From a virus (taxonomy: Duplodnaviria > Caudoviricetes): a stretch of DNA of 61,200 bases. Each line of letters opens with the position of its first letter. Within the stretch, counting starts at the first letter, position 1. The DNA lies in IMG/VR virus record IMGVR_UViG_3300023184_009672, positions 1-61,200 of that record. One strand, given 5' to 3'. A program made the translations under genes and the position numbers. This document shows, one piece after another, positions 29,315 through 48,487 of this stretch. Under the pieces are notes generated by a model that was not told where the DNA came from, searched no databases, and saw only the letters and a list, made by a program, of their open reading frames with translations.

Positions 29315-29319
29315 TGGTT

Positions 29320-30354: not shown

Positions 30355-30373
30355 ACTAAAACGAAACTTTAAC

Positions 30374-30407: not shown

Positions 30408-30425
30408 GTCTAAATCTAATGAATT

Positions 30426-30500: not shown

Positions 30501-30539
30501 ATCGCTTGACTTTTTATTCTATTATGTTATAGTTATGAG

Positions 30540-30881
30540 ATGAAAGCAAAACATAAAGTATATTATAATCTACATAAAAAATGTTTGTCTATTATGCTTC
30601 GTGGAAAAGTATTAGAGCATAGCACAGAATTCTTTTTGAAAGATGTAGAATTTAGAGTGAGTCAAGCAGGGCGTTCCAGGGTTTTAAAAGAGCAAAGAAA
30701 GAATGTTCACGCTTTTGTATGTGGTACTCCAGATGATGGTTGGCCAGTAGATCAAGTAGAAAGAAAAGTTACCTATAATCCTTATAAGTATAATAGCTTT
30801 GTTTATGCTGATAACCTTGAGCCAGTATACAAAGCAAAGTGGGTTGGAGTAATTAATCGTGATATATTTGTCTTGAATTAA
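30540..30881 (+). CDS. Conserved phage hypothetical protein
   Basis: VYYNLHK...FRVSQAGR.RVLKE.RKNVHAFV...YNPYK. Confidence 0.75.
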   Translation: MKAKHKVYYNLHKKCLSIMLRGKVLEHSTEFFLKDVEFRVSQAGRSRVLKEQRKNVHAFVCGTPDDGWPVDQVERKVTYNPYKYNSFVYADNLEPVYKAKWVGVINRDIFVLN

Positions 30882-31051
30882 AAAGAAAGTATAGTATAAT
30901 CTTTAAATGGAAAAGATAACTAAAATCAAAAAACTCGCTGAAGGTGGCTATGCTATTTATAGCGTAGACCCCAAAACTAAAAGTGAAATGCAAGTTGGTT
31001 ATATTGGAGACAAACTCGACATCAAGGGTTGGCTTCCAGAAGGAGTAAAAA

Positions 31052-31703
31052 TTGAAAATTCTTGAAGATAATTTTAACAGCAAAGGATTTAATCTTTCCT
31101 TGCTCAAGCGAGAAGGAGATGTTGCAATCTATAAAAAGACATTAGAAGATTCTGAGTCAGGCGAAAGCAACTTTGAAGTAATCGCAATTAAGCGTCACAA
31201 TGGTTATGAGATTGCAGGAATCAAAATGCCTCCAGCAGAGATGTATCCTTCCAACACTCAATGGGGAGATTGGGCTTATACTTGTACTAGCAGAGAAGAT
31301 GCAGACAAGCGTTTCATTCAACTCACAGACAAACTAACAAACTACACCGCAACTTCTGTTCTAGCTAGTGGCGAGAAGCGTAAGCGTGGTCGTCCTCGGA
31401 AGAGCAATATTCTTCCAGCACCTCCAGCAGAAATTCACTTGACAGAAAATCAAATGGAGGTAGTATAAGGTTATGACATACAAATGTTCAGTAAGCGGTG
31501 AAGCAATTTCACCAGAGAGAGTCGAGGCTCTGAAAGTCCTTGGCGTTCCAGAAAGTAAATGGACAAACATCAAACATAGTCAAGTAAAGAAACTTAGGGG
31601 AGTATATGCTGGTGACGATGGCAGTAATGATATTGTTATCTGTGACGCAGTAGATGGTGGCTCATTATTTGACAATTCAGTTGTAGTCGAGGAGGTAGAA
31701 TGA
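31052..31703 (+). CDS. Two hypothetical ORFs (31052 with AT-hook-like KRGRPRK; 31473 with degenerate DksA-type finger motif)
   Basis: KRKRGRPRK; C..SGEAISPERVEAL. Confidence 0.55.
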
Positions 31704-31893
31704 AAGATAAATTTTATTCAGTTTATAGAGTAGATCATCGTGGAGACACAAATCCTTATGTTCGTGTGAGTGAATTCACTTACAAGAATGAAAATGATAG
31801 CTCAAAGGAAATTGCTTATTGGCAAGAAATCCTAAAGCGTTTCCCAGATGGTACAAAAGTTATCGTTAAGTAACTTCGGAGGCTGACACTAAT

Positions 31894-31984
31894 GCTAGAG
31901 TCGTCTAACTGGTTAAGACCCACGACTTATATTCGTGAAGCTCTAGATTTGAGCGCAATGTAGGTTCGAATCCTACCTCTAGTA
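31894..31984 (+). tRNA. tRNA with TAT anticodon (Ile) and long variable arm
   Basis: GCTAGAG/CTCTAGT acceptor, CACGA-CTTATAT-TCGTG anticodon arm, GCTC/GAGC variable arm, GTAGGTTCGAATCCTAC. Confidence 0.8.
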
Positions 31985-32008
31985 AGTTACTGATAGTCAA
32001 CGAGATTC
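31982..32008. repeat. Half copy of element A (single 27-bp quasi-palindrome)
   Basis: gtaagttactgatagtcaacgagatt overlapping the tRNA 3' end and preceding TTGACA(32014). Confidence 0.7.
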
Positions 32009-32047
32009 TTTTATTGACAAAAACTCAAGTTGTGGTATTCTTACATT

Positions 32048-32254
32048 ATGACAAAACAAAAAGCACCATTCTATGTGATGAATGTGTTCGGCCAAGACCG
32101 AGCCGTTATCCTAAACTCAGCAATCCGTATGTGTACGCCCAAGGAAACCTGCTCACTCAAAGACTTGGAGAATTATTCCAAGGCTTTTGCAGTAGAGTTT
32201 TTCCAAGTGCCGAAACCTTCTAGCTTTCCTTCTAAAGTGGGGCAAGTAGTTTAA
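32048..32254 (+). CDS. Hypothetical protein
   Basis: Leaderless promoter TTGACA(32014)-16-TATTCT. Confidence 0.55.
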   Translation: MTKQKAPFYVMNVFGQDRAVILNSAIRMCTPKETCSLKDLENYSKAFAVEFFQVPKPSSFPSKVGQVV

Positions 32255-32311
32255 AGGTGAAACAGAGAACTCATAATTCTCCTAGTGCTGGTTCGAGTCC
32301 AGCCTTGCCCA
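32240..32311 (+). tRNA. tRNA-CAT (elongator Met or Ile2)
   Basis: GGGCAAG/CTTGCCC acceptor, GAGAA-CTCATAA-TTCTC; lacks the initiator GGG/CCC anticodon stem. Confidence 0.85.
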
Positions 32312-32428
32312 CTCTGCTTACTTCTCCGTGTGCTGAATGGATGCTTAACTCTTATAGCAAACACGCAGAATTAACAGAACAAGACATCAAAGACTACTTT
32401 ACCAACAAAGAAAGGCTTGCACTAAAAA

Positions 32429-32500
32429 GGGTCGTTAACTCAATGGTAGAGTAGTTCCCTTTTAAGGAATTTGTTATAGGTTCAAGTCCTATACGACCCA
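32429..32500 (+). tRNA. tRNA-Lys(TTT)
   Basis: GGGTCGT/ACGACCC; GTTCC-CTTTTAA-GGAAT. Confidence 0.9.
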
Positions 32501-32543
32501 AAACAACTCTTGACAAACAACAAAGAAAGTATAATATAAAACT

Positions 32544-32930
32544 ATGACATTAATCAAACAAAATCTTGGAGCACAATGGGTTATTGGTATCAAAGGCAAA
32601 CCAGATAAAATTAAACAATATCACAACCGCATATATAATTGGGGTGGAACAAATGGTAATCTTAAATGGATGAGTAATAACTTTGCTTATTTTTGGATTA
32701 CAATGGAGAAACTAGAACGAGTTATGTTTAAGTATATGTCCAGCGGAATGACAAACAAACTTGGTAAAAGGTTTAGAGGTTCAAAGAGTGGATTCAAGAA
32801 TGTTATTCTTAACAGAGTTAAAAATACTATTAACAACATTAAAGTAGAAAACTTTTTAAGAACAGCACAAGAGCAAGACTTCTATTCTCTTGGCACAATC
32901 TCTGCTGAAAAATTAGATACGGATAGTTAA
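32544..32930 (+). CDS. Hypothetical protein, paralog of 41734-42153
   Basis: HNRIYNWGGTNG and FLRT...GTISAEK shared. Confidence 0.7.
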   Translation: MTLIKQNLGAQWVIGIKGKPDKIKQYHNRIYNWGGTNGNLKWMSNNFAYFWITMEKLERVMFKYMSSGMTNKLGKRFRGSKSGFKNVILNRVKNTINNIKVENFLRTAQEQDFYSLGTISAEKLDTDS

Positions 32931-32936
32931 TCTATT

Positions 32937-33009
32937 CGCCTAGTAGCCCAATGGCAGAGGCAAACGACTTAAAATCGTTCAAGTGTCAGTTCGAGTCTGA
33001 CTTAGGCGA
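32937..33009 (+). tRNA. tRNA-Leu(TAA), short variable loop
   Basis: CGCCTAG/TTAGGCG; AACGA-CTTAAAA-TCGTT; 5-nt variable loop. Confidence 0.85.
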
Positions 33010-33018
33010 AGTTTTATT

Positions 33019-33092
33019 GTTCCTATAACTCAATTGGATAGAGTAACAGATTTCTAATCTGTAAGTTGCAGGTTCGATCCCTGCTAGGAGCA
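33019..33092 (+). tRNA. tRNA-Arg(TCT)
   Basis: GTTCCTA/TAGGAGC; ACAGA-TTTCTAA-TCTGT. Confidence 0.9.
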
Positions 33093-33294
33093 AGTTTTAC
33101 GAATTATTTTCTCTAAATAATAATTAAGATGTAAGCCAGTATGTGAATAAGTTTTTTGTTAAATACTTTCCAGAATTTTTAATTTTAAGTATCATATTAG
33201 TAATTAGCTCAAGCGCAATAGAATCATTAATCAAAATAGTGATTGCACACATTAAATAATTTAGATAAACGCCAGTTATACATTATCATATATA

Positions 33295-33699
33295 ATGCAA
33301 GAACCAACTTCTGTAGAAGAACTAATAAAAAAGCATAGAGAAATTCCCGCTTATTCTGAAATAGATAATAAAATTTATATACAAGATTTTCATGGACTCA
33401 ATACCTTAAATAAGAAATATAACTTATTAAGCCACAATTATGAATTGCATAATTATTTTAGATCTTATGAATTGATAATGGAAAGCAGAAGTAATCCTGA
33501 AAAGATGAATGAACTATTAGGGTCTATAGATATGAGTTCTATGGAAAGTGTTTTGAAATTTCAAGAAAGCCTAACCTCTTATGATAAATACATTAGTTTA
33601 ATTAAAGTACATATCAAGAAAGAAAATTTACCAGAAGAGTTTAAAAATAAAAGTATTATACTTGTGCATGCTGGTAAAATGCATCATATTTGTAATTAA
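33295..33699 (+). CDS. Hypothetical protein
   Basis: 134-aa ORF. Confidence 0.55.
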   Translation: MQEPTSVEELIKKHREIPAYSEIDNKIYIQDFHGLNTLNKKYNLLSHNYELHNYFRSYELIMESRSNPEKMNELLGSIDMSSMESVLKFQESLTSYDKYISLIKVHIKKENLPEEFKNKSIILVHAGKMHHICN

Positions 33700-33970
33700 G
33701 TAAGATACATTACACATATAAAAAAATTTTACTCAAATATCTAATAGGATTACATAAATACTTGAATTATAATATAATATATTGTAATATATAGTAGATA
33801 TGAAACACGAAAACAGAATAAGCAAAATATTAGAAAAGAAAATTTTAAAGGACGAAGATCCTAAACTTATATCTGAAATAGAAAGATACTTAGCTGGTTT
33901 AGAAATACATTATAGCAAATGGGCAAAAGCTCATCCTAATTGGAAAGAATCAGAAGAATAAACAACCCTC

Positions 33971-34045
33971 GTAAGTCCTTACCTATCAAGGATTTACAAA
34001 AGCAACCTCCCTCGCGCTGTAAGTCGTTGACCATCAACGAGATTT
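33971..34045 (+). repeat. 75-bp element A, copy 3
   Basis: gtaagtccttacctatcaaggatttac-aaaagcaacctccctcgcgct-gtaagtcgttgaccatcaacgagattt. Confidence 0.9.
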
Positions 34046-34093
34046 AACTAAAGATTTTTCTTGTGGAAAAACAAAGGTATGGTATATTTAAGT

Positions 34094-34360
34094 ATGAACA
34101 AAATCAAAATCGCAATCATATACGCAACCTCATATCTGAAACACTTCGTCCTTTTCCTCTTGGGGCAAAGGTATTTAATCGAATACAAACCTTATGGCGG
34201 TGAAGAAGCCTTCACTTACATTATCAGCAAGCCTAGCTCTTTTAAGGTGAGCAAAGCTGGCAACAAGCTCTTCACGAGTTTCTGCTTCTCTGGTCGTATG
34301 GATTCTGGCGTGAAGCAATTCCGCTATGATCGTATCGCTGGTGGTCTCTCGCCAGTCTAA
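34094..34360 (+). CDS. Hypothetical protein (weak WYL-like end, QFRYDRI)
   Basis: Leaderless promoter directly after element A. Confidence 0.6.
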   Translation: MNKIKIAIIYATSYLKHFVLFLLGQRYLIEYKPYGGEEAFTYIISKPSSFKVSKAGNKLFTSFCFSGRMDSGVKQFRYDRIAGGLSPV

Positions 34361-34410
34361 CAACAGAGAGATTAGGGGGTTATTATTAGCCTCCTAGTTT
34401 AACATATAGA

Positions 34411-34440
34411 AAGGGCGAGGAGAAATCCTCGCCTTTTTTA
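34411..34440 (+). terminator. Intrinsic terminator
   Basis: GGCGAGGA-GAAA-TCCTCGCC plus TTTTT. Confidence 0.9.
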
Positions 34441-34490
34441 TTTGACTTATAGTTTAGTTATGGTACTATACAGATAGTTCTTTTCTATTA

Positions 34491-34645
34491 TTCGATGGAT
34501 CGGCGTGGTAGCTGTGAGTTTGCAATAACAACTCAGTAGAAACTGGAGACACGCAACAGAAACAACTTTAGGAGACTATCATCCAAAGATTTCTGTCTGA
34601 GCCGAAAGGCGTAGACGAGTTGGGGTAGCGTCCAACACCATCGAG
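34491..34645 (+). ncRNA. Expanded tRNA-like non-coding RNA
   Basis: TCGATGG/CCATCGA closing stem, GCGTG/CACGC, ACAGAAA/TTTCTGT, GCC-GAAA-GGC, GTTGG/CCAAC arms; promoter TTGACT(34442). Confidence 0.6.
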
Positions 34646-34651
34646 TATAGT

Positions 34652-34849
34652 TTATATTTTATTGCGCCACTTGTCTCTGTGGAAACAAACCCAACTTAAT
34701 AAAGCTTTTTCAAAACCAATATCATGTCCTGCTTTTTCACTTTCAATCCATTTGTGCTTTAAGATTTCTTCTCTTTCGCTCAAGAAGTTTTTATATAATA
34801 ATGAATGACTTAATATACGATCCATATCTTGTTTAATATTATCACTCAT
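34652..34849 (-). CDS. Small DUF4032-related protein
   Basis: EREEILKHKWIESEKAGHDIGFEKAL..W; GTGTAA motif upstream on - strand. Confidence 0.75.
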   Translation of the reverse strand: MSDNIKQDMDRILSHSLLYKNFLSEREEILKHKWIESEKAGHDIGFEKALLSWVCFHRDKWRNKI

Positions 34850-34892
34850 ATAATAAACTGCAAACTATATTACACAAAGTTTTTTATAGTAT

Positions 34893-34967
34893 GTAAGTTA
34901 TTCATCATTAACGAGTTACGCAAGCAACCTCCCTGCAGTTGCAAGTCCTTGATGGTCAATGAGATTT
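34893..34967 (+). repeat. 75-bp element A, copy 4
   Basis: 27+21+27; core CCTCCCTGC. Confidence 0.9.
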
Positions 34968-35016
34968 AAATTGAATATTATTTTGACATAAAGTAAATTT
35001 CTGATATATTTAAGCT

Positions 35017-35847
35017 ATGAAAGTAAACGAAATTATCACAGAAAAGTTTATCGAAGCCCTCAACAAAGGCGTATGCCCTTGGCAGAAACCTTGGAAAGTA
35101 TTTGAGATTTGTAATGGCGTTTCAAAGAAGAATTATAGAGGCATCAATCAATTTTTGCTTCGGATGGTTTCCTCTGACGATTTCTTTTTTACATTTAATC
35201 AAATCAAGGAACTAGGTGGCAGGATTAAAACTGGCGCTAAGGCTCACATGGTAGTCTATTACAAACTATTAAAGACAGAAGCTAAGAATGAATTGACCAG
35301 AACTTTCCCGATGATGAGATATTATAAAGTTTTCGGGTTGAGCGATGTCGAGGGAATCAAATGGAAGCAACCAGAGACTCCTAAGTTAGAATTTTCGCCA
35401 ATAGAAGAAGCAGAGAAGTTGATTAACAAGTGTGTGATTCAGATTAAGTATGGTGGTAGTCGTGCCTGTTACTATCCACAAGATCACAAGATTGATTTGC
35501 CTCTCAAAGAAAACTTCAACAGCGTTGAGGAGTACTACTCCACAGCATTTCACGAGATTGGTCACGCTATGCATAAAAGCACAAGTGACGATATCAAAAA
35601 TGGTTTCGGTTCTCAGAATTATAGCAAAGAAGAATTGACCGCAGAGATTTTTGCTAGCCTCTGTCTTAACTTCTGCGGAATTGATTCTGAAAAATGTTTC
35701 AACAATTCTGCCAGCTATCTCTCCAACTGGCTGGGAGTATTAAAGAAAGACATGAACTTTATTATCTCAGCTTCTAGCAAAGCACAAAAAAGATTTGATG
35801 CTTTCCTCGATAAAAAAGATAACGAAGAATTACATATGAATTATTAA
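35017..35847 (+). CDS. ardC: ArdC-like antirestriction/ssDNA-binding protein (DUF1738 + zincin domain)
   Basis: PWQKPW, YRGIN, TFNQ...GGRI..G, YYSTAFHEIGH, FGS..YSKEELTAE, SASYLSNW. Confidence 0.9.
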   Translation: MKVNEIITEKFIEALNKGVCPWQKPWKVFEICNGVSKKNYRGINQFLLRMVSSDDFFFTFNQIKELGGRIKTGAKAHMVVYYKLLKTEAKNELTRTFPMMRYYKVFGLSDVEGIKWKQPETPKLEFSPIEEAEKLINKCVIQIKYGGSRACYYPQDHKIDLPLKENFNSVEEYYSTAFHEIGHAMHKSTSDDIKNGFGSQNYSKEELTAEIFASLCLNFCGIDSEKCFNNSASYLSNWLGVLKKDMNFIISASSKAQKRFDAFLDKKDNEELHMNY

Positions 35848-35852
35848 GAGTT

Positions 35853-35927
35853 GCAAGTGCTTAAGTATTAAAGACTTACGCAAGCTGGGTCCCTGTGGTT
35901 GCAAGTCGTTGACTATCAGCGAGATTT
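35853..35927 (+). repeat. 75-bp element A, copy 5
   Basis: 27+21+27; core TCCCTG. Confidence 0.85.
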
Positions 35928-35975
35928 AAATGGTAAAAAAACTTGTATCAAACTTAATTTATGTTAAACTTTCTT

Positions 35976-36611
35976 ATGTTCAAAAACAAAAAACAAGCAG
36001 AAGAGATTGTCGGAACACTCTCAAAACCTTCGAAGATGCCAGGATTTGCGTATTCAACACCAGCAAAGCGTTGTCAGATTGGTATGAAAATGCGTGGAGT
36101 TGTTGGCAGTATGTGTGCGTTTTGCTATGCGTTGAAAGGGCGTTATGTTTTCCCTAATGTTGTGAAAGCTATGGAACGGCGTTTTGCTTCACTTACTCAC
36201 GATCTTTGGGTGGAAGCTATGACATATCTTATCGGAAAGGTTAAGAATCCTTATTTTCGCTGGCACGATTCAGGAGACATCCAAGGCGTTTGGCATCTTC
36301 AAAAGATTGTGCAAGTCGCTAAAAACTTACCTAATGTTAATTTTTGGCTACCCACGAGAGAATACTCCTATGTTTCATCTTATATATCAGAGGGTGGAGA
36401 AGTGCCTAGCAATCTTACCATTCGCCTCTCTGCTCTGATGATGGATGGAGTTGCACCCGTTGGAATTGCTCAACGCCTTAACTTATGCGTAAGTGGTGCG
36501 AGCAAGTTAGGTAATTTTAATTGTCCTAGCTCTAAGCAAGGGAACAAGTGTGGAGATTGTCGCAAGTGTTGGGATAAAAATGAGTTTGCAATTAACTACA
36601 AAAAGCATTAA
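35976..36611 (+). CDS. Gp88-like Cys-rich phage protein
   Basis: SKMPG, C...C..CYA, FRWHDSGD, FWLPTRE, NLTIRLS, CP...CGDCRKCW. Confidence 0.75.
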   Translation: MFKNKKQAEEIVGTLSKPSKMPGFAYSTPAKRCQIGMKMRGVVGSMCAFCYALKGRYVFPNVVKAMERRFASLTHDLWVEAMTYLIGKVKNPYFRWHDSGDIQGVWHLQKIVQVAKNLPNVNFWLPTREYSYVSSYISEGGEVPSNLTIRLSALMMDGVAPVGIAQRLNLCVSGASKLGNFNCPSSKQGNKCGDCRKCWDKNEFAINYKKH

Positions 36612-36851
36612 GATGTACCAATGGACATTATTCTTCCGATTGTTTTATTCTTAATTATTATTATATTTATTAAAGGATTACAAAAATGAAAATTGAAAAC
36701 ATATTAAAAGAAAACTTAGAATCTTTTTATCCTTGGAGCGATAACGACACTCCTCCACTCGATACCAATAAGAAAACTTTTGTAGAAAAAGAAAAAGAAA
36801 CTTTAGAAGATTTCGAGGGTTGGCGAGCTTGTATGTAAAAAACTTGTTGTT

Positions 36852-36926
36852 GTAAGTCGTTGACCATTAACGATTTACAGCCGCAGGGAGGTTGGATCTG
36901 TAAGTCGTTGATACTCAGCAACTTAG
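36852..36926 (-). repeat. 75-bp element A, copy 6 (at the convergence point of transcription)
   Basis: Core GCAGGGAGG on +. Confidence 0.9.
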
Positions 36927-37021
36927 CGACGCTCTATCATTGACCTAATCAAAGCATAAATTAATTGCACAAAAACCAAACCAAGATAAGCGTATAGGCA
37001 CATTAAAAATGTTTGCATATT

Positions 37022-37306
37022 TTATTCTCCACAAATTGCTGAATCGCCAAAGTAACCATAGTCTTCATCTGTGCCCCAGCCAGCAGAAGCCATAGCTGAA
37101 TCGTGGTCGCCATCCATCGACTCATCAGGCCTATCATCAGGTTCAGAAGAACCAATGATAAGAGGATCACTTTGCTCAGAGTCAGAACGATGCACGATAT
37201 TGTTGGCCATATTCTCCTCACGAATACCTTTCAAGATATCACGCACATCTAGCACACCCAGACCATTCTGGCTCATCCATTCCTTGAGAGAAGCTTTGTA
37301 GTCCAT
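37022..37306 (-). CDS. Acidic hypothetical protein (SAGWGTDEDYG motif)
   Basis: ATG 37306 directly after the upstream ORF stop. Confidence 0.65.
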   Translation of the reverse strand: MDYKASLKEWMSQNGLGVLDVRDILKGIREENMANNIVHRSDSEQSDPLIIGSSEPDDRPDESMDGDHDSAMASAGWGTDEDYGYFGDSAICGE

Positions 37307-37307
37307 A

Positions 37308-37472
37308 TTAGACAACCTCCACAAGAGTTTCGGAATTAGAATAAGTTCCATTCAACGCATCCAGCATAGCGTTGATTTCAGTATTGGAGTTGAGGTAGTC
37401 GAAGAACGCATTTGCGTCAGCATAAACTTCCTCGCAGGTTTCCGTCGCTAGGGATGTAATTTCGTTTCTCAT
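37308..37472 (-). CDS. 54-aa acidic hypothetical protein
   Basis: Hand-translated MRNEITSLATETCEEVY...; leaderless promoter TTGTTC..TGATATATT. Confidence 0.6.
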   Translation of the reverse strand: MRNEITSLATETCEEVYADANAFFDYLNSNTEINAMLDALNGTYSNSETLVEVV

Positions 37473-37580
37473 ACTTAGAATATATCACAGATTAGATTTA
37501 GAACAAGGTTTATTTTCATAAAAAGCAGATAGAAGAATCTCTAATAGTAAATAGGAAATAGTCTAATAACAAATAGCCCC

Positions 37581-37698
37581 GATCTTTCTGCTTCATTCAG
37601 TTTTTGCTCTAAAATCAGTTCGTGTAAGTCGTTGATGGTCAAGCACTTGCGCGCCCACCCTCCCTGCGCTTGTAAGTCGTTGATACTCAGGCTCTTAC
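37581..37698. repeat. 36-bp repeat B (37581-37616) plus element A copy 7 (37624-37698)
   Basis: gatctttctgcttcattcagtttttgctctaaaatc followed by 27+21+27 element. Confidence 0.9.
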
Positions 37699-37978
37699 AA
37701 GAGGTCTCTGAGATTCAAACAACTCGCAGAAAGATAGTAGAAAAATCTTTCACGCAAAAAGTTTTTCCTCTCACCATTTTTCACGGCAAGTCTATAAGTT
37801 TTTTTGTTTAATTTAAAAAGTATATTTTTCATTTAACTCTCGCCCATATCGCGCATATGGTCAGAATCAAGTTCTGCTTGAGTTTCTAAAGCTCGCTCCA
37901 TAGCTTGATCATCCAACATTTTTTTTGCCCATATGTTTAATGTTTTTTGGTCATCGAATATATCATACATCATTTTAT

Positions 37979-38257
37979 TTAGTCTCCTTTGTAGTCTGAA
38001 GTTGCGTTGAAGTCTCCGATGAAACTCATCGTGCCGTTTTTGCGTTCTTCACATTCTTTAAGAAGAGCAGGAGTCATTTCGACTTCGGTCACTTCATCGT
38101 AAAAAGCTATTACGCTTCCAACTCCAGAGATTCTGGAAAGGCATTTTTTGTTAGAGGTTGAATTGAGCATTTCGCAGATTGCGATATGGTTTTTGATTTG
38201 GTAGTATTTTCCTACTACGAGGGATTCGATTGTGTTTTTCATTTCTTTATCTTTCAT
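37979..38257 (-). CDS. Hypothetical protein
   Basis: Leaderless promoter TTGCAA..TGATAAACT. Confidence 0.6.
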   Translation of the reverse strand: MKDKEMKNTIESLVVGKYYQIKNHIAICEMLNSTSNKKCLSRISGVGSVIAFYDEVTEVEMTPALLKECEERKNGTMSFIGDFNATSDYKGD

Positions 38258-38313
38258 ACTATTTAGTTTATCACAGATTGAGTTTTTTGCAAGGTATTTC
38301 TTTGAGTTAAATC

Positions 38314-38544
38314 TCATTGAGCATCAACGGGATACAAACCCTTACGCATATAAATGGTTGTCCATTTACCTTTATCCTCGCCTTCGAGGATTTCAGCAGT
38401 TGCAGTTTTTGTTTTCCAACCAATAGTGGAAGGGAAAAGTTTCACGAGTAATTTCTCGTGGCCATATCTGTATATGTTTTTATTTTCGTATAGTTCAGGA
38501 TTTATTTGTATATTCATTTTATTTATTCTTTCTTTCGTTTTCAT
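38314..38544 (-). CDS. Hypothetical protein, paralog of 39289-39561
   Basis: LVK...TATAEILEGEDKGK. Confidence 0.6.
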   Translation of the reverse strand: MKTKERINKMNIQINPELYENKNIYRYGHEKLLVKLFPSTIGWKTKTATAEILEGEDKGKWTTIYMRKGLYPVDAQ

Positions 38545-38608
38545 TTCTTATCTTGTTATAAGTATAGTTTAGCATATTCCAGAGAAAACGCAACAAAAAT
38601 CTTCATTT

Positions 38609-38843
38609 AAATTTCATTGATGGACAACGAGTTACAGCCGCAGGGAGGTTGGTGCCGTAAGTCGTTGACTTATAACAATTTAGAGTTTATGCGTTCATTC
38701 AGTTTTTGTCTCAAGATCAGTTCTGATCTTTCGCTTTCAGTCATGTTTTGTCATAAGATCGAACATCTATAAGTCTTTGACTATTAAGAACTTACACAAG
38801 AGCCCTCCCTGCGCTTGTAAGTTGTTGATGGGTAAGCACTTAT
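38609..38843. repeat. 235-bp composite A-B-B-A (A copies 8 and 9 inverted; B at 38683 and 38725)
   Basis: Same geometry as 41096-41330. Confidence 0.92.
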
Positions 38844-38945
38844 AATTGGTCAAAAAAGACAAAAAAAATCTGTGAAGTTTTTTTCACAGATTCTTGCACC
38901 GAATCTTTATGCAAAAGGTTTTAGCTTTCGCGGTTTTTCTACATT

Positions 38946-39152
38946 TTATTTAGCCTTTGGACCCCAACGCTTTTTAGCAAGTGCTAACTGTTTATCAAGT
39001 TTCGCTAAGGCTTTAGCCTTAACATAGTCTGGATTTTGAAGTTTCCAATCAGCCCAACTCTTTTTGAGTCTAGACCACTTTTGGTTATTATTTTCCCAAC
39101 GCTGTAATTCCCATTCTTGGGAAGTTTGTTTTTTATTCATTTCATTATTCAT
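38946..39152 (-). CDS. Hypothetical protein
   Basis: 68-aa ORF; hairpin AATCTGTGAA/TTCACAGATT downstream. Confidence 0.55.
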   Translation of the reverse strand: MNNEMNKKQTSQEWELQRWENNNQKWSRLKKSWADWKLQNPDYVKAKALAKLDKQLALAKKRWGPKAK

Positions 39153-39288
39153 TTTATTTACTTTCTGGATACAAGGTCAACCGCAATGCGATTAATTCAA
39201 TTAGAATCCGTTTTTCGTTTTGAAGGTTAAGAATCAAGATTTCATTTTTGATTCGTTTAATTTCTTTTTTTAGTTGATGTTGATTCAT

Positions 39289-39561
39289 TTATTTATTTTC
39301 CTTTACTAGTTTAGCATTGTTAAGGTTGATAGTTCCAACCTTATCTTTATCTATACCTTCAAGGAAGGTTACAACCGCAGTATTTGCAGAAGTTTTATAA
39401 GAAACTTTTACTAAAGTTCCTTCGTAAAGGTATATTTCACCAAAGTATGTTGGTGTATTGTTAGAGTTAGTTATGATGGATTCAGTACTATCCATATTTT
39501 TTCGCATATTTTCACGCATTTGTCTGCGGTGAAAATTCCAATTTATCATTCTATGAGTCAT
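39289..39561 (-). CDS. Hypothetical protein, paralog of 38314-38544
   Basis: LVK...TAVVTFLEGIDKDK. Confidence 0.6.
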   Translation of the reverse strand: MTHRMINWNFHRRQMRENMRKNMDSTESIITNSNNTPTYFGEIYLYEGTLVKVSYKTSANTAVVTFLEGIDKDKVGTINLNNAKLVKENK

Positions 39562-39610
39562 TTTATTTATTTTCTTTCTTTGTTATTTCTTATCTTGTTA
39601 TAGTTATAGT

Positions 39611-39823
39611 TTAGCATATTTCAGCCGAATTGCAAGCGATTTCTTCAATTTGTTTTTCGTTGACCATCATACAGTTATGATGAGCGAGTGAAACTTTTTG
39701 TTGATATTTCTCAAAAATTTGGTCAATTCTTTTTGCAGTTTCTTCATTTGCTTTTTTCATATCAGCGGAGACTTTTTCAAGGTTTGCGATTAGGATTTCA
39801 TACTTGGTTAATTTCTTATTCAT
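39611..39823 (-). CDS. Coiled-coil hypothetical protein, paralog of 42205-42378
   Basis: KLTKYEILIANLEK; leaderless promoter after element A. Confidence 0.65.
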   Translation of the reverse strand: MNKKLTKYEILIANLEKVSADMKKANEETAKRIDQIFEKYQQKVSLAHHNCMMVNEKQIEEIACNSAEIC

Positions 39824-39872
39824 AGATACAGTTTAGCATATTTCAGAAGAAATGCAACATATTTCTTCATTT

Positions 39873-39982
39873 AAATCTCGTTCACCATCAACGAGTTACA
39901 GCTGCAGGGAGGTCGCTTTTGTAAGTCGTTAATGATTAAGGATTTAGGTTTTTTGCTTTTATTCAGTTTGTGCCGTAAGATC
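39873..39982. repeat. Element A copy 10 (39873-39947) plus repeat B (39947-39982)
   Basis: B abuts the 3' end of tRNA-Thr. Confidence 0.9.
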
Positions 39983-40054
39983 AGCCAGAAATCGGATTCG
40001 AACCGATGACCTACGGTTTACAAAACCGTTGCACTACCGCTGTGCTATTCTGGC
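39983..40054 (-). tRNA. tRNA-Thr(TGT)
   Basis: Reverse complement GCCAGAA/TTCTGGC; ACGGT-TTTGTAA-ACCGT; GGTTCGAATCC. Confidence 0.92.
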
Positions 40055-40065
40055 AAAATTATATT

Positions 40066-40305
40066 TTAATTATTGGTGTGATAATCGTAACCACCAGCCT
40101 TGTAAAGCCACCAAACGAAAGTATTTTCTTCGTAAGGATTGTTGAACTTTTCCCATCCTTCATCATTGAATCCATCATTGTAAGCTTTGAATTCAGAAAG
40201 ATCCCATTTCTTTGATTCTCCAAATTGCATCCATTCTTTTTGGTTCATTATTTTATTTATTTCATTTTCCAAGGTTTCAACATCTGAATTGATTTCTAAT
40301 TTCAT
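40066..40305 (-). CDS. Hypothetical protein
   Basis: Leaderless promoter TTGCGA..TGATAGAAT. Confidence 0.65.
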   Translation of the reverse strand: MKLEINSDVETLENEINKIMNQKEWMQFGESKKWDLSEFKAYNDGFNDEGWEKFNNPYEENTFVWWLYKAGGYDYHTNN

Positions 40306-40354
40306 GTTTTTATTCTATCATATTTTTAACTTATCGCAAGATATTTCTTCATTT

Positions 40355-40429
40355 AAATCTCGTTCACCATCAACGAGTTACAGCCGCAGGGAGGTCGCTT
40401 TTGTAAGTCGTTGTGTTAGAACAACTTAC
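40355..40429 (-). repeat. 75-bp element A, copy 11
   Basis: 40341-40412 nearly identical to 39859-39930. Confidence 0.92.
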
Positions 40430-40441
40430 ATCAGCTTATTT

Positions 40442-40819
40442 TTAGAACGCTGTAAAAGTCATTTGCGTAGATTCATCTAAAGTATTTTGAGAAGGCTTAA
40501 AGAAGATAACTTGGTTATTTATTTTATCTATTGAAACTCCTTTTGGCAAAGATGAGAAGTTTCCTTCGTCATCCGTTCCGATGACCAAAGCTTTTCCAGC
40601 AAAAGGTTGAGAGTGAAGCCCAAACTTAAAGTAAGCTTGAGATTCTTTGTCTTTCAACAAACCTTCGTCATCTAAAACCATATCAATTCCATCTTGTAGA
40701 TTTGTTATGGTAATTATATTACAACCTAGCAAAGAATAGATTGTTTGAAGTTTAGTATCTACTAAAGTGACATTTAGTATAGTTTCGGTGAATGGGTCAA
40801 TGAGGATTGCTTTGATCAT
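40442..40819 (-). CDS. DUF3846-like protein
   Basis: IKAILIDP...LDDEGLLK...FAGKALVIGTDDEG. Confidence 0.7.
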   Translation of the reverse strand: MIKAILIDPFTETILNVTLVDTKLQTIYSLLGCNIITITNLQDGIDMVLDDEGLLKDKESQAYFKFGLHSQPFAGKALVIGTDDEGNFSSLPKGVSIDKINNQVIFFKPSQNTLDESTQMTFTAF

Positions 40820-40836
40820 ATTTTTATTTTCTTTCT

Positions 40837-41046
40837 TTATTTGTAGGTTACGAAGTTTTGATTTTCTTTTCTCAGTTCGATTGTTGGAGGCATATCTGCC
40901 ATAGGTGCACCATTTACAACACCATTCAGAATCTCAAGAGTTTGGTGAGTTTGTTTTCCCATTGTATAGATGAGAAAAAACCCATAGGCAAAAAGCCCAA
41001 GGATAAAGATTCCGTGCATTGTTTTTTCAGTTATTGTTTTATTCAT
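40837..41046 (-). CDS. Small membrane protein
   Basis: Single TM segment; leaderless promoter after element A. Confidence 0.6.
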   Translation of the reverse strand: MNKTITEKTMHGIFILGLFAYGFFLIYTMGKQTHQTLEILNGVVNGAPMADMPPTIELRKENQNFVTYK

Positions 41047-41095
41047 AGATTTATTCTATCACATTTTAGGATTATCACAAGATATTTTTACATTT

Positions 41096-41330
41096 AAATT
41101 TCATTGACCATCAACAAGTTGCAGCTGCAGGGAGGAGGCTTATATAAGTAGTTGATATATAGAGACTTAGATTATATGCGTTCATTCATGTTTTGTCCTA
41201 AGATCGTTTTCGATCTTTTGCCTTTCATCAGTTTTGTCGCTAAGATCGAGCATGCCTAAGTCGTTAGCTATTAGGCACTTACGGAAGCGCCCTCCCTGCA
41301 TGCGTAAGTCCTTGATAGGCAGGCACTTAC
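41096..41330. repeat. 235-bp composite A-B-B-A (A copies 12 and 13 inverted; B at 41170 and 41212)
   Basis: Same geometry as 38609-38843. Confidence 0.92.
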
Positions 41331-41351
41331 ATGCAGTAGGCTAGCTTATCG

Positions 41352-41729
41352 CTACAGCTTGTAGAACTTATGGTGCTGTATGACTGCTACCAGCTTAGTG
41401 TCCTTAGCCCACTTAGGCGAGACGCTCACAGCGTGGTAGTGATTAGCACCCTTGACGATGTCGGGCATCTGCTTGTGCAGTACAAGGTCAGCAAGATACA
41501 GAGCATCCTTGCCTTGTCTAGTAGCTAGTAGCTTACGCTTGGATGACTCACTCACCTTACCATTCCAGAAGCTGAACTGCTTAGGTGATAGGCACACCTG
41601 CATAGGTGTCTGCTTGCGCTGTATGGTGCGTGTCTGTATGACACTAGCAACACCAGCCATACCCTCGAAGCCCTCGCCTCTCGCCTCGCCTAGTAAGGTC
41701 AACGCTATGATGAGTAGTTCAGCGGTCAT
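41352..41729 (-). CDS. SleB/Hydrolase_2 cell wall hydrolase
   Basis: GEARGE...VASVI..R, QFSFWN, GANHYH, PKWA, HKFY. Confidence 0.88.
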   Translation of the reverse strand: MTAELLIIALTLLGEARGEGFEGMAGVASVIQTRTIQRKQTPMQVCLSPKQFSFWNGKVSESSKRKLLATRQGKDALYLADLVLHKQMPDIVKGANHYHAVSVSPKWAKDTKLVAVIQHHKFYKL

Positions 41730-41733
41730 ACTA

Positions 41734-42153
41734 TTACTCTCTCCCACTACTTACTGCACCGCAGTAATCAGAAGGTTTCTCTGCTGTGATCGTGCCGAAT
41801 CCGTAGGTATCGTTAGAGACAGAGGTACGAAGGAATCGCCCATCAATGATGTTGTCGAATTGACCTTGTGCCTTGATCTTCGCAAGGCTCATCAATCCAC
41901 CCTTCATTCCCTTTGCGTTTATCTTGTTGCATAGGGAGTGTAGAGCAATCTTGACGAGAGCGTGTAAGACTGCATCGGGTTGAGCGTAGAAGTAAAACGC
42001 TTTGCCGTTGCCCATATCGTGCAACTGCCCATTAGTCGCACCCCAGTTGTATAGGGCATTGTGGAATGAGGTAATGCGACCCTTGCCACCTTCCAAGAGG
42101 AAAGCAGTCGTTTCGCCGAATGATTGTTTGGTGATGTTTAGTTGGTTTTTCAT
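41734..42153 (-). CDS. Hypothetical protein, paralog of 32544-32930
   Basis: HNALYNWGATNG; GC-rich; leaderless promoter TTGACG..TAATAT. Confidence 0.7.
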   Translation of the reverse strand: MKNQLNITKQSFGETTAFLLEGGKGRITSFHNALYNWGATNGQLHDMGNGKAFYFYAQPDAVLHALVKIALHSLCNKINAKGMKGGLMSLAKIKAQGQFDNIIDGRFLRTSVSNDTYGFGTITAEKPSDYCGAVSSGRE

Positions 42154-42204
42154 AGTGTGTATATTATCCTTTTCGATTGGTTTCGTCAATGGTTATTTTC
42201 TGAG

Positions 42205-42378
42205 TTACTCGCAAGCGTGGCTGAGATCGCTAGGCTCATAGATTTTCAGCATCTCCTCACGCTTCGAAGAATACGCTTCAGAGACTTTTAGGAAAGACTC
42301 ACAAGCCTTAGCGTGATTCGCAGAGGCTTTTTCGAGGTTAGCGAGGAGGGTTTCGAACTTACTTAATTTATTTTTCAT
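42205..42378 (-). CDS. 57-aa hypothetical protein
   Basis: Hand-translated MKNKLSKFETLLANLEKASANHAK...; leaderless promoter. Confidence 0.65.
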   Translation of the reverse strand: MKNKLSKFETLLANLEKASANHAKACESFLKVSEAYSSKREEMLKIYEPSDLSHACE

Positions 42379-42427
42379 ACAAGTAGTCTATCATATTAGA
42401 GAAAAAAAACAACATATTTCTTCATTT

Positions 42428-42634
42428 AAATTTCACTGACCATCAACGAGTTACGACGCAAGGGAGGGCTCTCTCCTAAGTCTTTGATAGTCAAGCGTGT
42501 GATCTTTTGCTTTCATTCAGGTTTTGTCGCAAGATCGATTACGATCTTTAGCCTTCCTTCATGTTTTGTCCTAAGATCGACACAGAATAGCTTATTGATT
42601 ATCAATGACTTGCGTAACAACCCCCCTATTTTTG
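42428..42634. repeat. Truncated composite: A copy 14, B at 42501 and 42543, half A at 42587
   Basis: Same spacing as the other composites; last palindrome missing. Confidence 0.88.
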
Positions 42635-42850
42635 AAAAAAACTGACTGAAGCTAATGCTAAATGGTGCGAGGGGGTATCAACATCATTCTCCCCATAACA
42701 ATAAAAGTATTATTATATATAGGTTATACTCTACCTTTATTTTAAAATCATTTTAAAACAACTATAAGCTAGAATCTTTTCAAATTAAAAAAATCCACGG
42801 GGCTATTTATTTATATAACCCTTTTTATATATATTAAAAAACATACTATA

Positions 42851-42856
42851 GTGTAA
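42851..42856 (+). promoter_or_regulatory. GTGTAA putative late promoter motif (also 16087, 18429, 19591, 44678, 45693, 46446, 52401, 55865; 34870 on - strand)
   Basis: Recurs 8-20 nt upstream of ATGs, mainly of late-region genes. Confidence 0.6.
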
Positions 42857-43085
42857 TAACAATTACTATGAAAATGAATTTAAAAGCAATAACACTAACA
42901 GTTATACTAGGTAGTTTACTCTACTTATTATCTCACTATAAAAACAATAAAACAGAAATTATAACTAACCAAAAGGATCAAACAAAAATCATTGATAAAA
43001 AGCCCTCAGAATTAGCCGCGCCCAAGGTTTATATTTCTACTTTGCCCCAAAATGGATTAGAGGTAGGAGGGAATTGGAAAAGTAG

Positions 43086-43424
43086 ATGATAAAACATATA
43101 AAAGATATAGTTCAAGGCAAAGCTAAAATTGGAGATGGTAGATCTTCTCAATGGCCCACTATAAGAAAAAAACATTTAAAAAATCAACCAAAATGCGCAG
43201 TTTGTGGTGGTGATAAAACTTTAGAAGTTCATCATATAAAACCATTTAATGAACATCCAGAATTAGAATTAGATTTAAATAATCTTATAACTCTATGTGA
43301 AAGCAAAAATAATGGTGTTACTTGTCATCTTTTATTTGGTCATTTAGGTAACTATAAAACTATTAATCCAAATGTATTAGAAGATGTAGCTATTTGGTTT
43401 AAAAAAATAACAGAAAGATCATAA
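43086..43424 (+). CDS. HNH endonuclease
   Basis: CAVCG...EVHHIKP...NLITLC...CH...GH. Confidence 0.88.
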   Translation: MIKHIKDIVQGKAKIGDGRSSQWPTIRKKHLKNQPKCAVCGGDKTLEVHHIKPFNEHPELELDLNNLITLCESKNNGVTCHLLFGHLGNYKTINPNVLEDVAIWFKKITERS

Positions 43425-43425
43425 T

Positions 43426-43899
43426 ATGATTATCCCCGCCCAAAACCTTTTAGTTCCATTCTCAAATCAACCAAGACTACCTAAAAATTTCGTTATATCA
43501 GACTTAAACTACTTATGCCCAACAATAGAAACAGTAACAAATATAATATATCCAGCTTATGTTTGGTGGCTTAGATCTTTAAAGTTAACCAAATGGACTC
43601 ATAAATGGGATTGTGACAATTTTGCTGACGCTTTTAAGCTCTACTCATGTGGATATCATTATCAAAATTTGCAAGACGAAGCAGAGGGCATAGGTATTGG
43701 AGTTATTAACTATATGGCTAATAGCAAAGCAGAAGATGGCTTAAAAGGTGGCCATGCTATCAATATTATTTATGCTCAAAACAATAAAAACGATGATAAT
43801 ATAAGCGATTTTGATGTATATTTCCTTGAGCCTCAAAATGGCAAGCTATACTCTCTAACACCAGAAGAATTTAATAGCATTTGGACAGTTTATATATAA
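43426..43899 (+). CDS. Papain/transglutaminase-like Cys protease fold protein
   Basis: WDCDNFA...GHAIN...FLEPQ triad pattern. Confidence 0.6.
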   Translation: MIIPAQNLLVPFSNQPRLPKNFVISDLNYLCPTIETVTNIIYPAYVWWLRSLKLTKWTHKWDCDNFADAFKLYSCGYHYQNLQDEAEGIGIGVINYMANSKAEDGLKGGHAINIIYAQNNKNDDNISDFDVYFLEPQNGKLYSLTPEEFNSIWTVYI

Positions 43900-43940
43900 A
43901 ATATCTTGACTTTAAGTTAAATAAGTCATATAGTACTTAT

Positions 43941-44267
43941 ATGAAACAAAAAATTCTAATAATCCTATCAAGTTTGTTTATTTTAACTAATATTACCCAT
44001 GCCCAAATGAAGTGCTCTATTTGGTCAGAAGATTTTGGTAATGAACAAAATGCAAGAATAAGATCCCTTAAAGAAGAGGAAAGATATTACAAGATTCAAT
44101 ATGATATCTTAAATAAACCATCCGTCTCTCATAGAGATGTTGTTCTCTTAAGACAAGCTACCCATCAACTTGGTTTGACAAAAATAGGTGAGCTTCAAAT
44201 CACAAGAAATAAATGCTTCACTAGGACAGAAAGACAACCAATGGTCTTTACAAGAATATGTCAATAA
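43941..44267 (+). CDS. Secreted hypothetical protein
   Basis: Signal peptide; promoter TTGACT..TAGTAC. Confidence 0.55.
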   Translation: MKQKILIILSSLFILTNITHAQMKCSIWSEDFGNEQNARIRSLKEEERYYKIQYDILNKPSVSHRDVVLLRQATHQLGLTKIGELQITRNKCFTRTERQPMVFTRICQ

Positions 44268-47406: not shown

Positions 47407-47823
47407 ATGCTAAAAACATACTGTTCAGAATGTGGCGGACCAACAGAATATTCCCTTAATAAGCCTAAATTTTGCAGTAATTGTGGCAATTCTTTCGACA
47501 AAAAAATAGCATTACAAGTTTTAAAGCCGAAGAGAACAATATCTAGAGTACAAGAACCGACAGAAGATATAGAGGATATTGACGGAGGTGAAGATATCAA
47601 TTATGTGCCTGATATTAAAAAAATAGATTATGAATTATCTTTACCTCTGAAAAATAAAGAAACAATTGGCAATTTAGCAGGAACTTCCACAGATTCATCT
47701 GACCAAAATTGGCCGAAAATAAAAACTCCTAAAGTCAGCAAAAAAGAGTTTTTAGATAATTTTGCAAAAGAGGCTGGATCCATTAGAGGAAAACTCAATA
47801 GGAAACATGGCCCTAAAAATTAA
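47407..47823 (+). CDS. Zinc-ribbon protein
   Basis: YCSECG...KPKFCSNCG. Confidence 0.75.
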   Translation: MLKTYCSECGGPTEYSLNKPKFCSNCGNSFDKKIALQVLKPKRTISRVQEPTEDIEDIDGGEDINYVPDIKKIDYELSLPLKNKETIGNLAGTSTDSSDQNWPKIKTPKVSKKEFLDNFAKEAGSIRGKLNRKHGPKN

Positions 47824-48487
47824 ATTTGAAGCTTGTATAGACCAAATCAATACAGAGATTATAAAAAGAAAGCACAAGTGGAATCTTACCGCTATAGCTT
47901 GGATGGATTTTAATGATGTGTCACAAATTTTAAGGTTTCATATTTACAAAAAATGGCATTTATATAATCAAGAAAAACCCCTAGCCCCATGGGTTAACAC
48001 AATAATCAGTAATCAAATTAAAAATTTAATAAGAAATAATTATAGTAATTTTACTAGACCTTGTTTAAAGTGTTCTGCGGCTGATATGGATCATGGTTGC
48101 GCTATTTATGGGACGCAATGTAATACTTGTCCTTTATACGCAAATTGGGAAAAAAATAAGAAAAGTGCACATGACACAAAATTGACAGTAAGCATGGAAA
48201 ACCATTCTCAAGAAATAAATAGTATTCCTAATGAAAATTTAAACATGGAACAAAGCGCAAAAAATATTCATAATAAAATGTCAAAAGTTTTAAAGCCTAT
48301 AGAATGGAAAATATATAGACATCTTTATATAGAAGGCAAAAATGAAGAGCAAACAGCTAAATTAATGGGTTATAGAACTAGCGAAAAAAATAGAATAGCA
48401 GGATATAAGCAAATTAAAAATATAAAAAAATCTATTATAATTAAAGTCAAAAAACATCTATATAATGGGGAGATAGACATAGTATGA
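47807..48487 (+). CDS. Phage RNA polymerase sigma factor-like protein with Cys-rich insert
   Basis: Region-2-like DFNDVSQ...W..TIISNQIKNLIR and region-4-like LKPIEWKIY...EEQTAKLMG. Confidence 0.7.
   Translation: MALKIKFEACIDQINTEIIKRKHKWNLTAIAWMDFNDVSQILRFHIYKKWHLYNQEKPLAPWVNTIISNQIKNLIRNNYSNFTRPCLKCSAADMDHGCAIYGTQCNTCPLYANWEKNKKSAHDTKLTVSMENHSQEINSIPNENLNMEQSAKNIHNKMSKVLKPIEWKIYRHLYIEGKNEEQTAKLMGYRTSEKNRIAGYKQIKNIKKSIIIKVKKHLYNGEIDIV

Follow-up and report, generated by a model that had tools for sequence, protein, structure and literature searches.

Promoter-early stem-loops (PeSLs) of T4-type phages are, in the available portions of the papers that describe them, intergenic modules beside small ORFan genes, in which a stem-loop with a G/C-rich part is combined with an AT-rich tract and a strong sigma-70-like promoter (PMC2839356; PMC4122927). 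According to the same portions, gene cassettes are gained, lost and reordered at these modules without a dedicated recombinase. Here, we analyzed a 61,200-bp stretch of DNA from a virus of the Caudoviricetes (IMG/VR record IMGVR_UViG_3300023184_009672; 32.6% G+C, CheckV completeness 36%), hereafter named the window, which carries eight copies of a 36-bp repeat. The repeat is called B as first read on the plus strand, and B* as its reverse complement, in the sense of the genes. It lies between two stem-loop elements, A and A', which together look like a PeSL-like cassette boundary: A' and its promoter show a sigma-70-like promoter with an AT-rich tract, a G/C stem-loop, and indels and shuffling at the elements. 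The cassettes are regulatory modules of the known PeSL-like kind, and B is an optional addition to them that has not been described before; literature searches turned up no account of it, the supplements of the PeSL papers, possibly holding motif alignments, not being covered. The phage of the window is large and carries rIIA, an ATP-dependent ligase, a large terminase, PhoH, a sigma-like protein and seven tRNAs. Its relatives are uncultured lake-water phages of about 130-172 kb. The best cultured matches of the large terminase are only 24-26% identical and of siphovirus type, with no T4-type match.

An earlier note on this DNA had reported eight co-oriented 36-bp copies, and all were confirmed on the plus strand (Table 1), together with the 42-bp period within pairs. 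A weight matrix built from the eight copies scored them at 42.2-52.3. Over both strands of the 61,200 bp the runner-up reached 21.9 (position 34731), and all remaining sites stayed at or below 11.5; in 100 random windows drawn from a first-order Markov model, the family matrix gave no score above 16.5. The inverted ends GATCTT and AAGATC held only in part, as five of the eight copies start with GATC (the others with GAGT, GGTT or GATT), while seven end in AAGATC and one in AAAATC. The consensus typed in the note had no match at up to three mismatches because it is 35 letters long. The association with element A stood, every cluster in the window adjoining an A-type site: an A'-type site lies 13-14 nt off the low-coordinate side and/or an A-type site 7-8 nt off the high-coordinate side. 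The copies had also been placed in a minus-strand half of the sequence. The genes are indeed on the minus strand; they form an island of about 5.5 kb (~36.9-42.4 kb), the sole such stretch in a window that is otherwise plus-strand. The word GATC is not enriched in the window (153 observed versus ~181 expected).

To describe the repeat across its relatives, a survey set of 65 sources was used, consisting of the window and 64 viral loci (L-numbers) pulled out with a degenerate B pattern. True copies, 82 in all, were present in 36 of the 65 sources; the 43 distinct clusters comprise 19 single copies, 23 pairs and one triple, and no source carries copies on both strands. The lack of conservation in related phages, which the earlier note had named as grounds for dropping its proposal, is thus not what was seen. 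The spacing between neighboring copies is 42 bp in all 25 cases, drawn from 24 distinct multi-copy clusters, and the linker is always 6 nt long and free in sequence. Of the 36 columns, 11 are the same in all 62 distinct copies compared, and about six are close to random. The gene-sense consensus of B* reads GATCTT-nnn-ACAAAACCTGA-nn-GAA-n-GC-AAAA(G/A)ATC. It starts with GATCTT in 61 of 64 distinct copies, which corresponds to a GATC at the 3' end of B as first read, and ends in AAGATC in 39 and in AAAATC in 18; the GATC at the 5' end of B is therefore kept in only 39/64. TGA is fixed at positions 18-20 in 62/64. The terminal hexamers form inverted repeats about three helical turns apart, centre to centre. 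In eight of the 64 copies the A-run begins 1-2 nt late, and a downstream base is lost so that the unit stays at 36 bp.

The flanks are held at equally fixed distances. The A site lies at 7 nt in 14 clusters, 8 nt in eight and 6 nt in one, with none at threshold in the other 20; the A' site lies at 14 nt in 24 clusters and 13 nt in one, with none at threshold in the other 18. Purifying selection acts on the sequence, length and phase of B, as seen from its position-specific conservation, the compensated changes in length and the invariant length of the linker. A single IUPAC pattern recovered 64/64 known copies without a false hit in 233 kb (window plus the complete relative G001, where it found the nine true sites only). 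Cultured phages contain no B: the 6.5-kb region was matched there by tRNAs only, and a B pair by one chance hit (E = 0.8). In 185,579 genomes of prokaryote species (one each), the sole true copy is on a 1-kb phage-like contig that bears the phage module. B is restricted to this phage lineage.

The co-orientation of the copies held, and their natural reading turned out to be the reverse complement of the one first given. Because the flanking open reading frames (ORFs) run opposite to the strand first read, we take B*, in the sense of these genes, as the natural reading. ORFs on both sides are opposite to that strand for 53 of 80 copies, and where an ORF was called on the low-coordinate side (75 copies), it is opposite in 68; the ORF calls are crude and include some spurious frames. 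In gene sense, the full module runs from the stop codon of the previous gene through A, 7 +/- 1 nt, the distal B*, 6 nt, the proximal B*, 14 nt, A', an AT-rich tract and a promoter to the next gene, which is often leaderless. Element A consists of two direct hairpin units (GTAAGT-N9-ATCAACGACTTAC type) flanking a G-rich core. In element A', a C-rich core separates a hairpin unit from an inverted half unit; the arms of the element are 12-bp inverted repeats, and the loop of ~21 nt holds CCTCCCTGCG-type cores, C-rich in gene sense. The promoter has a TTGCGA-type -35 box, 16 nt, and a TG-n-TAGATT/TAAACT -10 box. The same layout of A' and promoter recurs in relatives, and a scan of the region picked up two such promoters, from which B is distinct. 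Variants of the module were also found, with B* directly 3' of a tRNA (B4 in the window and the orthologous place in L028), 23 nt upstream of a TTGACG-17-TACATT promoter (L020, L042), or ahead of short CTATTT-type repeats (B1 and many relatives).

The strict word for integration host factor (IHF) occurs 15 times in the window against 10.5 +/- 3.2 by chance, nine of the 15 being in A or A' elements. Since the word is not enriched window-wide, an IHF-like reading of the A/A' units stays a lead. An intrinsic-terminator-like hairpin between a minus-strand gene and one copy of A (Table 1) probably stops upstream transcripts ahead of B3/B2; contigs from two RNA libraries end at 38898/38899, which is a weak hint only.

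Several other intergenic features accompany the modules. Direct repeats of the CTATTT(C/G) type (ATAGGAAATAG on the plus strand) lie at 37520-37580, between B1 and the promoter of a 54-aa gene, and are kept in many relatives; they are candidates for a further array of protein sites. The divergent control region at 42620-42860 contains a conserved G4/C5-clamped hairpin (GGGGAGAATGAT...CCCCC) in very AT-rich DNA, which is kept in G001 and is inverted relative to B in L015. A small AT-rich hairpin (ACAACATTTTAATGTTAT type) stands beside B* or replaces it in L019, L042, L052, L003 and L047, and is another interchangeable intergenic unit. The island genes starting at 39823, 41046, 42378 and 37472 (minus strand) begin 6 nt past the -10 box, and their mRNAs are therefore predicted to be leaderless; other island genes have long A-rich leaders without a Shine-Dalgarno word.

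We then compared whole viral records (G-numbers) to see where B comes and goes. The window has eight copies, G001 (171.9 kb, 100% complete) one, G002 and G003 two each, G005 and G010 three each, and G012 one. Another 14 records selected by terminase have none, most of them stopping short of the island and three having been checked there. G001 is syntenic with the window over 34.0-43.9 kb but lacks the blocks of B2/B3, B5/B6 and B7/B8. A single A'-type element separates its hydrolase gene from the next promoter, a place taken in the window by A, B*, B* and A'. G004 and G008 likewise lack B5/B6 and B7/B8. The extra block of the window (G-rich core, hairpin unit, B*B*) is flanked by direct hairpin units, an arrangement that unequal homologous exchange would produce. 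The order of cassettes in L008 differs from that in the window. The closest relative by terminase is L214 (TerL 93% identical), which is the same contig as L031; it carries, ~8 kb from TerL, a like-placed array of at least three B copies joined by the same linker, where the window has two. This is the only array with three or more copies in the viral collection. Across distinct contexts, B* starts 79-80 nt past the stop codon of a conserved 45-aa gene in 14/25 and lies upstream of the conserved 54-aa gene in 12/20.

Metatranscriptomes from lakes added two natural deletions. A variant without 38304-38951 (648 bp, comprising a gene and A'-B-B-A) has 37 nt of A'-like sequence instead, and this joint was found in two runs; the other deletion removes one small gene, 37831-37977 (146-147 bp). 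In contigs from four runs, the bins 38609-38809 (B2/B3), 42428-42628 (B7/B8) and 42629-42800 are uncovered. They were not counted, because the strains in the samples differ from the window, one of them lacking 38304-38951, and because the contigs show no transcript starts or ends. One RNA contig running across A and B1 and ending at 37578 is a single observation and was not used.

In all these comparisons, the breakpoints of gain and loss fall in the A/A' units, and B lies inside the blocks that come and go. B therefore looks like cargo of a cassette system rather than a crossover point. This speaks against the directional crossover sites of the earlier note, as do profile searches for tyrosine (PF00589) and serine (PF00239) recombinases, which gave 0/4 in phage records and 14/14 and 12/14, respectively, in controls. 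These searches, like those for methylases and HU/IHF below, covered four phage records, one of them complete, with control genomes positive.

The comparisons show the anatomy, conservation, phasing, orientation, optionality and lineage restriction of B. As to its function, our tentative first choice is that B copies are sequence-specific docking sites on double-stranded DNA for a putative, probably phage-encoded factor, lined up along a single side of the helix within a rigid complex located upstream or at a boundary; the binding, the nature of the binder and the effect on transcription are inferred. The factor would dock on a single B site or on two sites exactly 42 bp apart, and because 42 bp is about four helical turns, both sites of a pair would present the same face. 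The sites would be clamped between the A hairpin/IHF-like units, upstream and after the previous gene, and the A' units, downstream and before the promoter. The resulting rigid nucleoprotein module would lie ~125-205 bp upstream of the predicted transcription start of a sigma-70-type early promoter and may tune, insulate or shut off transcription of the early cassette. Binding sites had been proposed in the earlier note as well; they are ranked first here on conservation, the fixed lengths of 36 and 42 bp and the fixed flank distances, and the iteron-like form given to them there fared less well, as discussed below. The data do not point to an RNA helix. The top pairs of columns by mutual information in 64 copies are all neighbors, with no base-pair covariation. 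Folded on both strands, two of the three pairs of the window had z-scores between -0.9 and -1.3, the remaining pair gave -2.6/-3.4, and the only recurring fold is a small hairpin of two facing GATC ends. Within 29,000-44,000, Rfam models matched (E<=1) the tRNAs alone, in part by chance, and neither A nor B. As one module lies behind an intrinsic terminator, B would act on DNA rather than as read-through RNA.

Several results weigh against docking sites. No binder emerged, the 45-aa neighbor being modeled as a two-helix hairpin without family or PDB match; the phage records searched hold no HU/IHF gene, and the IHF word lacks window-wide enrichment. B is dispensable at each site and the complete relative holds one copy, so any role of B must be accessory. 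A constant sense orientation to the downstream gene (68/75) is needed by a promoter or an RNA element, not by an operator. The exact 42-bp spacing could in part reflect pairs inherited as one unit. The 42-bp period was also considered as a coding repeat of 14 codons, since one plus-strand frame is open through B7-B8. This was rejected, as column variability lacks a period of three, shifts of 1 nt occur, and the frame is antisense to the genes.

Constant orientation is what an accessory promoter would require, and B* may be one, with A and B* forming a second PeSL-like unit in tandem with A' and the canonical promoter; host RNA polymerase would read it, perhaps with a phage factor or either of the two phage sigma-like proteins. 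In gene sense, a -10-like hexamer (A/T)AA(G/A)AT, whose second base is A and whose sixth is T, occupies a fixed place in 60 of 64 distinct copies, with a -35-like nnGACA or TTGACC 17-18 nt upstream. At least nine of 12 matches are reached by 10/64 copies, against ~1% of shuffles and 0/64 on the strand first read, and B5* is one of the four joint-best sigma-70-like sites (10/12) in the scan of the region. B* faces a co-directional downstream ORF in the 68 of 75 copies mentioned above and is placed straight after gene ends, a tRNA or a terminator, and these phages encode sigma-70 region-2 proteins. However, the TTG of the -35 box is not conserved, position -12 is A in ~79% of copies, and neither the invariant "spacer" block nor the upstream GATCTT is a sigma-70 feature. 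Two promoters 42 bp apart could not be occupied together, and the fixed linker length is left unexplained. The motif, its halves and its core do not recur elsewhere in the complete 172-kb relative G001, so B is not a general promoter class. On balance we consider a promoter doubtful. A role as RNA is less likely still. Early read-through transcripts would then supply B* as an expandable, non-coding decoy that imitates a host defense RNA, as pseudo-ToxI does with a type III antitoxin, or acts as a solitary mimic of a CRISPR repeat. The 36-nt unit with its 42-nt tandem period, the copy number differing between close relatives (two in the window, at least three in L031), the patchy and accessory presence, the sense orientation, the position in an early island beside an anti-restriction-type gene and the copy that starts at a tRNA 3' end, a possible processed 5' end, are all in line with it. 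Covariation and a stable shared fold are absent, however, B has no promoter of its own, one pair is behind a terminator, and fixed distances to DNA sites on both flanks suit a role at the DNA level better. Nor did host arrays resembling B turn up in scans based on exact seeds, the actual host being possibly outside the collection. With a B-core seed, none of 120 CRISPR-like arrays with a 60-84-bp period among the matches listed exceeded a matrix score of 8, and none of nine loci with a 50-80-bp period scored above 5. Among 72 antitoxin-like loci with a tandem spacing of 33-47 nt, none resembled B in this non-exhaustive scan, the best agreeing at 37/58 consensus positions, of which 22 were forced by the seed. 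Seven further loci from the scan of prokaryote genomes were not B-like beyond the seed, except the phage-like 1-kb contig, and a metagenome scan for triple cores in 42-bp phase, a pattern that was too loose, gave no B among the matches listed (at least 118 loci). A more specific version, which we regard as improbable, sees B*B* as a gene-less, promoterless mini-cassette, whose RNA, from early read-through or tRNA-linked transcripts, would absorb a host defense protein (a type III toxin, Cas or another RNA-guided or RNA-neutralized protein); it would spread among phages via the hairpin-mediated recombination that also moves protein-coding cassettes.

Mobility without such a function is the essence of another, highly improbable reading, in which B is a hitch-hiking or selfish repeat, a gene-less mini-cassette that A-type repeats would spread or remove through homologous recombination and that would be either functionless or a crossover site. 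Between orthologous genes, the block is either wholly there or wholly missing, hairpin units in direct repeat stand on both flanks, cassette order varies in close relatives, and a variant without 38304-38951 exists. Set against this are the purifying selection on the unit itself, the breakpoints in A/A' rather than in B, and the recombinase searches reported above. Even less weight goes to an iteron reading, in which a phage initiator would bind B at one or several replication origins whose architecture would include the neighboring IHF-like sites and AT-rich tracts. Direct, co-oriented repeats in helical phase, adjoining IHF-like sites and an AT-rich tract, would fit, as would the position of one cluster at the island head, within the divergent control region. 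The iteron-like origin of the earlier note is nevertheless weak, as clusters hold only one to three copies and are dispersed over five intergenic regions of the window, B is absent at orthologous junctions in G001, G004 and G008, and the complete genome has a single copy. Skew profiles, which that note had suggested, track gene orientation and show no other feature; no initiator gene turned up, although no systematic search was made. At the bottom of the list we place a Dam/SeqA-type methylation switch, in which hemimethylated, phased GATCs would be sequestered after replication and early promoters turned off. In a pair the GATCs start at 0, 32, 42 and 74 bp, all near whole helical turns, and the one at the 3' end of B as first read is kept in 61/64. 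Yet the other one is kept in only 39/64, the conserved asymmetric core is not accounted for, and GATC is neither enriched nor avoided. A Dam methylase, which the earlier note had thought worth looking for, was also not found, searches of the four phage records for D12-class Dam (PF02086) and N6/N4 methylase (PF01555) being negative. The remaining probability lies with some explanation other than these readings and the docking sites favored above.

The features of the island are listed in Table 1.

Table 1. Copies of B and associated features in the minus-strand island of the window
Feature	Coordinates	Strand	Remarks
B1, solo	37581..37616	-	In gene sense 7 nt after element A, then CTATTT-type repeats and promoter of conserved 54-aa gene
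Element A by B1	37624..37706	-	Two hairpin units and G-rich core; first unit contains stop codon of 45-aa gene
Gene of conserved 45-aa basic protein	37695..37832	-	Stop codon inside first hairpin unit of A
Sigma-70-type promoter of next cassette	38566..38593	-	TTGCGT, 16 nt, TG-n-TAAACT; read from sequence
Element A' and AT-rich tract by B2	38602..38682	-	Upstream of promoter 38593-38566
B2, promoter-proximal copy of pair 1	38683..38718	-	14 nt from A'; gene-sense 3' end TAAACT, like local -10 boxes
B3, distal copy of pair 1	38725..38760	-	Starts 42 bp from B2; element A 8 nt beyond
Element A by B3	38769..38851	-	D5 repeat family
Intrinsic-terminator-like hairpin and T run	38864..38895	-	Between gene 39152-38946 and element A
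Element A' and AT-rich tract by B4	39866..39946	-	D4 repeat family
B4, solo	39947..39982	-	Abuts 3' end of tRNA-Thr (39983-40054, minus); 14 nt from A' site
Element A' and AT-rich tract by B5	41089..41169	-	D4 repeat family
B5, proximal copy of pair 2	41170..41205	-	Gene sense AGGACA-17 nt-TATAAT
B6, distal copy of pair 2	41212..41247	-	Compensated 1-nt internal shift, length still 36
Element A by B6	41256..41338	-	Begins 14 nt past stop codon of cell-wall hydrolase gene
Element A' and AT-rich tract by B7	42421..42500	-	D4 repeat family
B7, proximal copy of pair 3	42501..42536	-	Divergent control region, head of minus-strand island
B8, distal copy of pair 3	42543..42578	-	Like-placed array in closest relative L031/L214

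Neighboring genes were examined for candidate factors. The basic 45-aa protein is 82-93% identical in 15 of 18 aligned relatives and 49-73% identical in the other three, with synonymous changes in the DNA. Its AlphaFold model is a two-helix hairpin (pLDDT 71.6). It had no Pfam hit at E<=1, and a profile search of PDB gave only ankyrin-repeat-like noise (E = 2.2). A ribbon-helix-helix binder, for which this protein had been considered, is supported neither by the model nor by the family and PDB searches. HU/IHF (PF00216) was found in none of the four phage records. Proteins with sigma-70 region 2 number two each in G001-G003 (region 2 only) and one in the record of the window, and their genes lie at 47762-48487 (plus strand) in the window and at 142.1 kb and 79.2 kb in G001. 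One of these genes is directly upstream of packaging and structural genes.

Pfam and PHROG scans of the island genes recognized only a cell-wall hydrolase and DUF3846. The hydrolase (PF07486) and a 151-aa ORF occupy the segment 41350-42200, whose G+C content is, by eye, higher than that of its surroundings; this segment looks like recently acquired cargo and has orthologues in G001, G004 and G008. Paralogous proteins of 52-70 aa, with a K-rich start followed by EILLxNLxKA, are encoded at 42205-42378 and 39611-39823 in the window and at 135.0 and 136.1 kb in G001, repeatedly as the first gene past A' and the promoter. Directly upstream of the island, at 35017-35847 (plus strand), is a gene for an anti-restriction-type protein (PHROG 7245, metalloprotease part), which fits an early anti-defense region.

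The early regions of large uncultured phages are made of small cassettes bounded by promoter/stem-loop modules, and B shows that such boundaries can bear something more: an optional element under strong selection and in rigid phase. If B is an operator array, it points to a new early regulator in an abundant lineage of freshwater phages, for which the 36-bp unit could serve as bait. As an accessory promoter or RNA decoy, it would be a new type of mobile regulatory or anti-defense cargo, and should the RNA mini-cassette be true, cassette arrays would also ferry non-coding anti-defense cargo. Whichever reading holds, B is a clean, lineage-specific marker for tracing the exchange of cassettes among these phages.

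Arrays of repeats combined with IHF bends are known from the O1-IHF-O2 operator/enhancer of phage Mu, the R-sites of lambda cosB with I1, and the iteron origins of pSC101 and R6K. Compared from general knowledge, they share with B short protein sites in helical phase beside DNA-bending sites, in a compact complex that controls a nearby promoter or reaction. The B sites differ in being longer (36 bp), asymmetric, dispersed, optional and limited to one to three per cluster, and similarity in sequence to these systems is not expected. In the middle promoters of T4, an activator box takes the place of the -35 box. As in B*, a conserved box at about -30 is followed at a fixed distance by a -10-like element, in tandem with early promoters; tens of middle promoters are spread across the T4 genome, whereas B occurs one to eight times and in one island only.

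Phage phiTE, according to the part of its description available, expands 36-nt pseudo-ToxI repeats from 1.5 to 4.5-5.5 copies (PMC3475682). These are likewise non-coding, intergenic tandem repeats of the 36-nt class in a large lytic phage, with a copy number that shifts between close relatives. In that text, however, the repeats of phiTE are copies of a known antitoxin of the host and abut each other in tandem (PMC3475682), whereas B has a free 6-nt linker, no RNA-fold signal and no host counterpart found, and is locked to flanking DNA sites. B is grouped here with the PeSL-like cassettes. The carrier phage is not T4-type by its terminase; rIIA and a DNA ligase are present, and its stem-loops bear IHF-like words. 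PeSLs have no counterpart of B in the available portions of their descriptions; here, an additional 36-bp unit with a 42-bp period is optionally set between two stem-loop elements.

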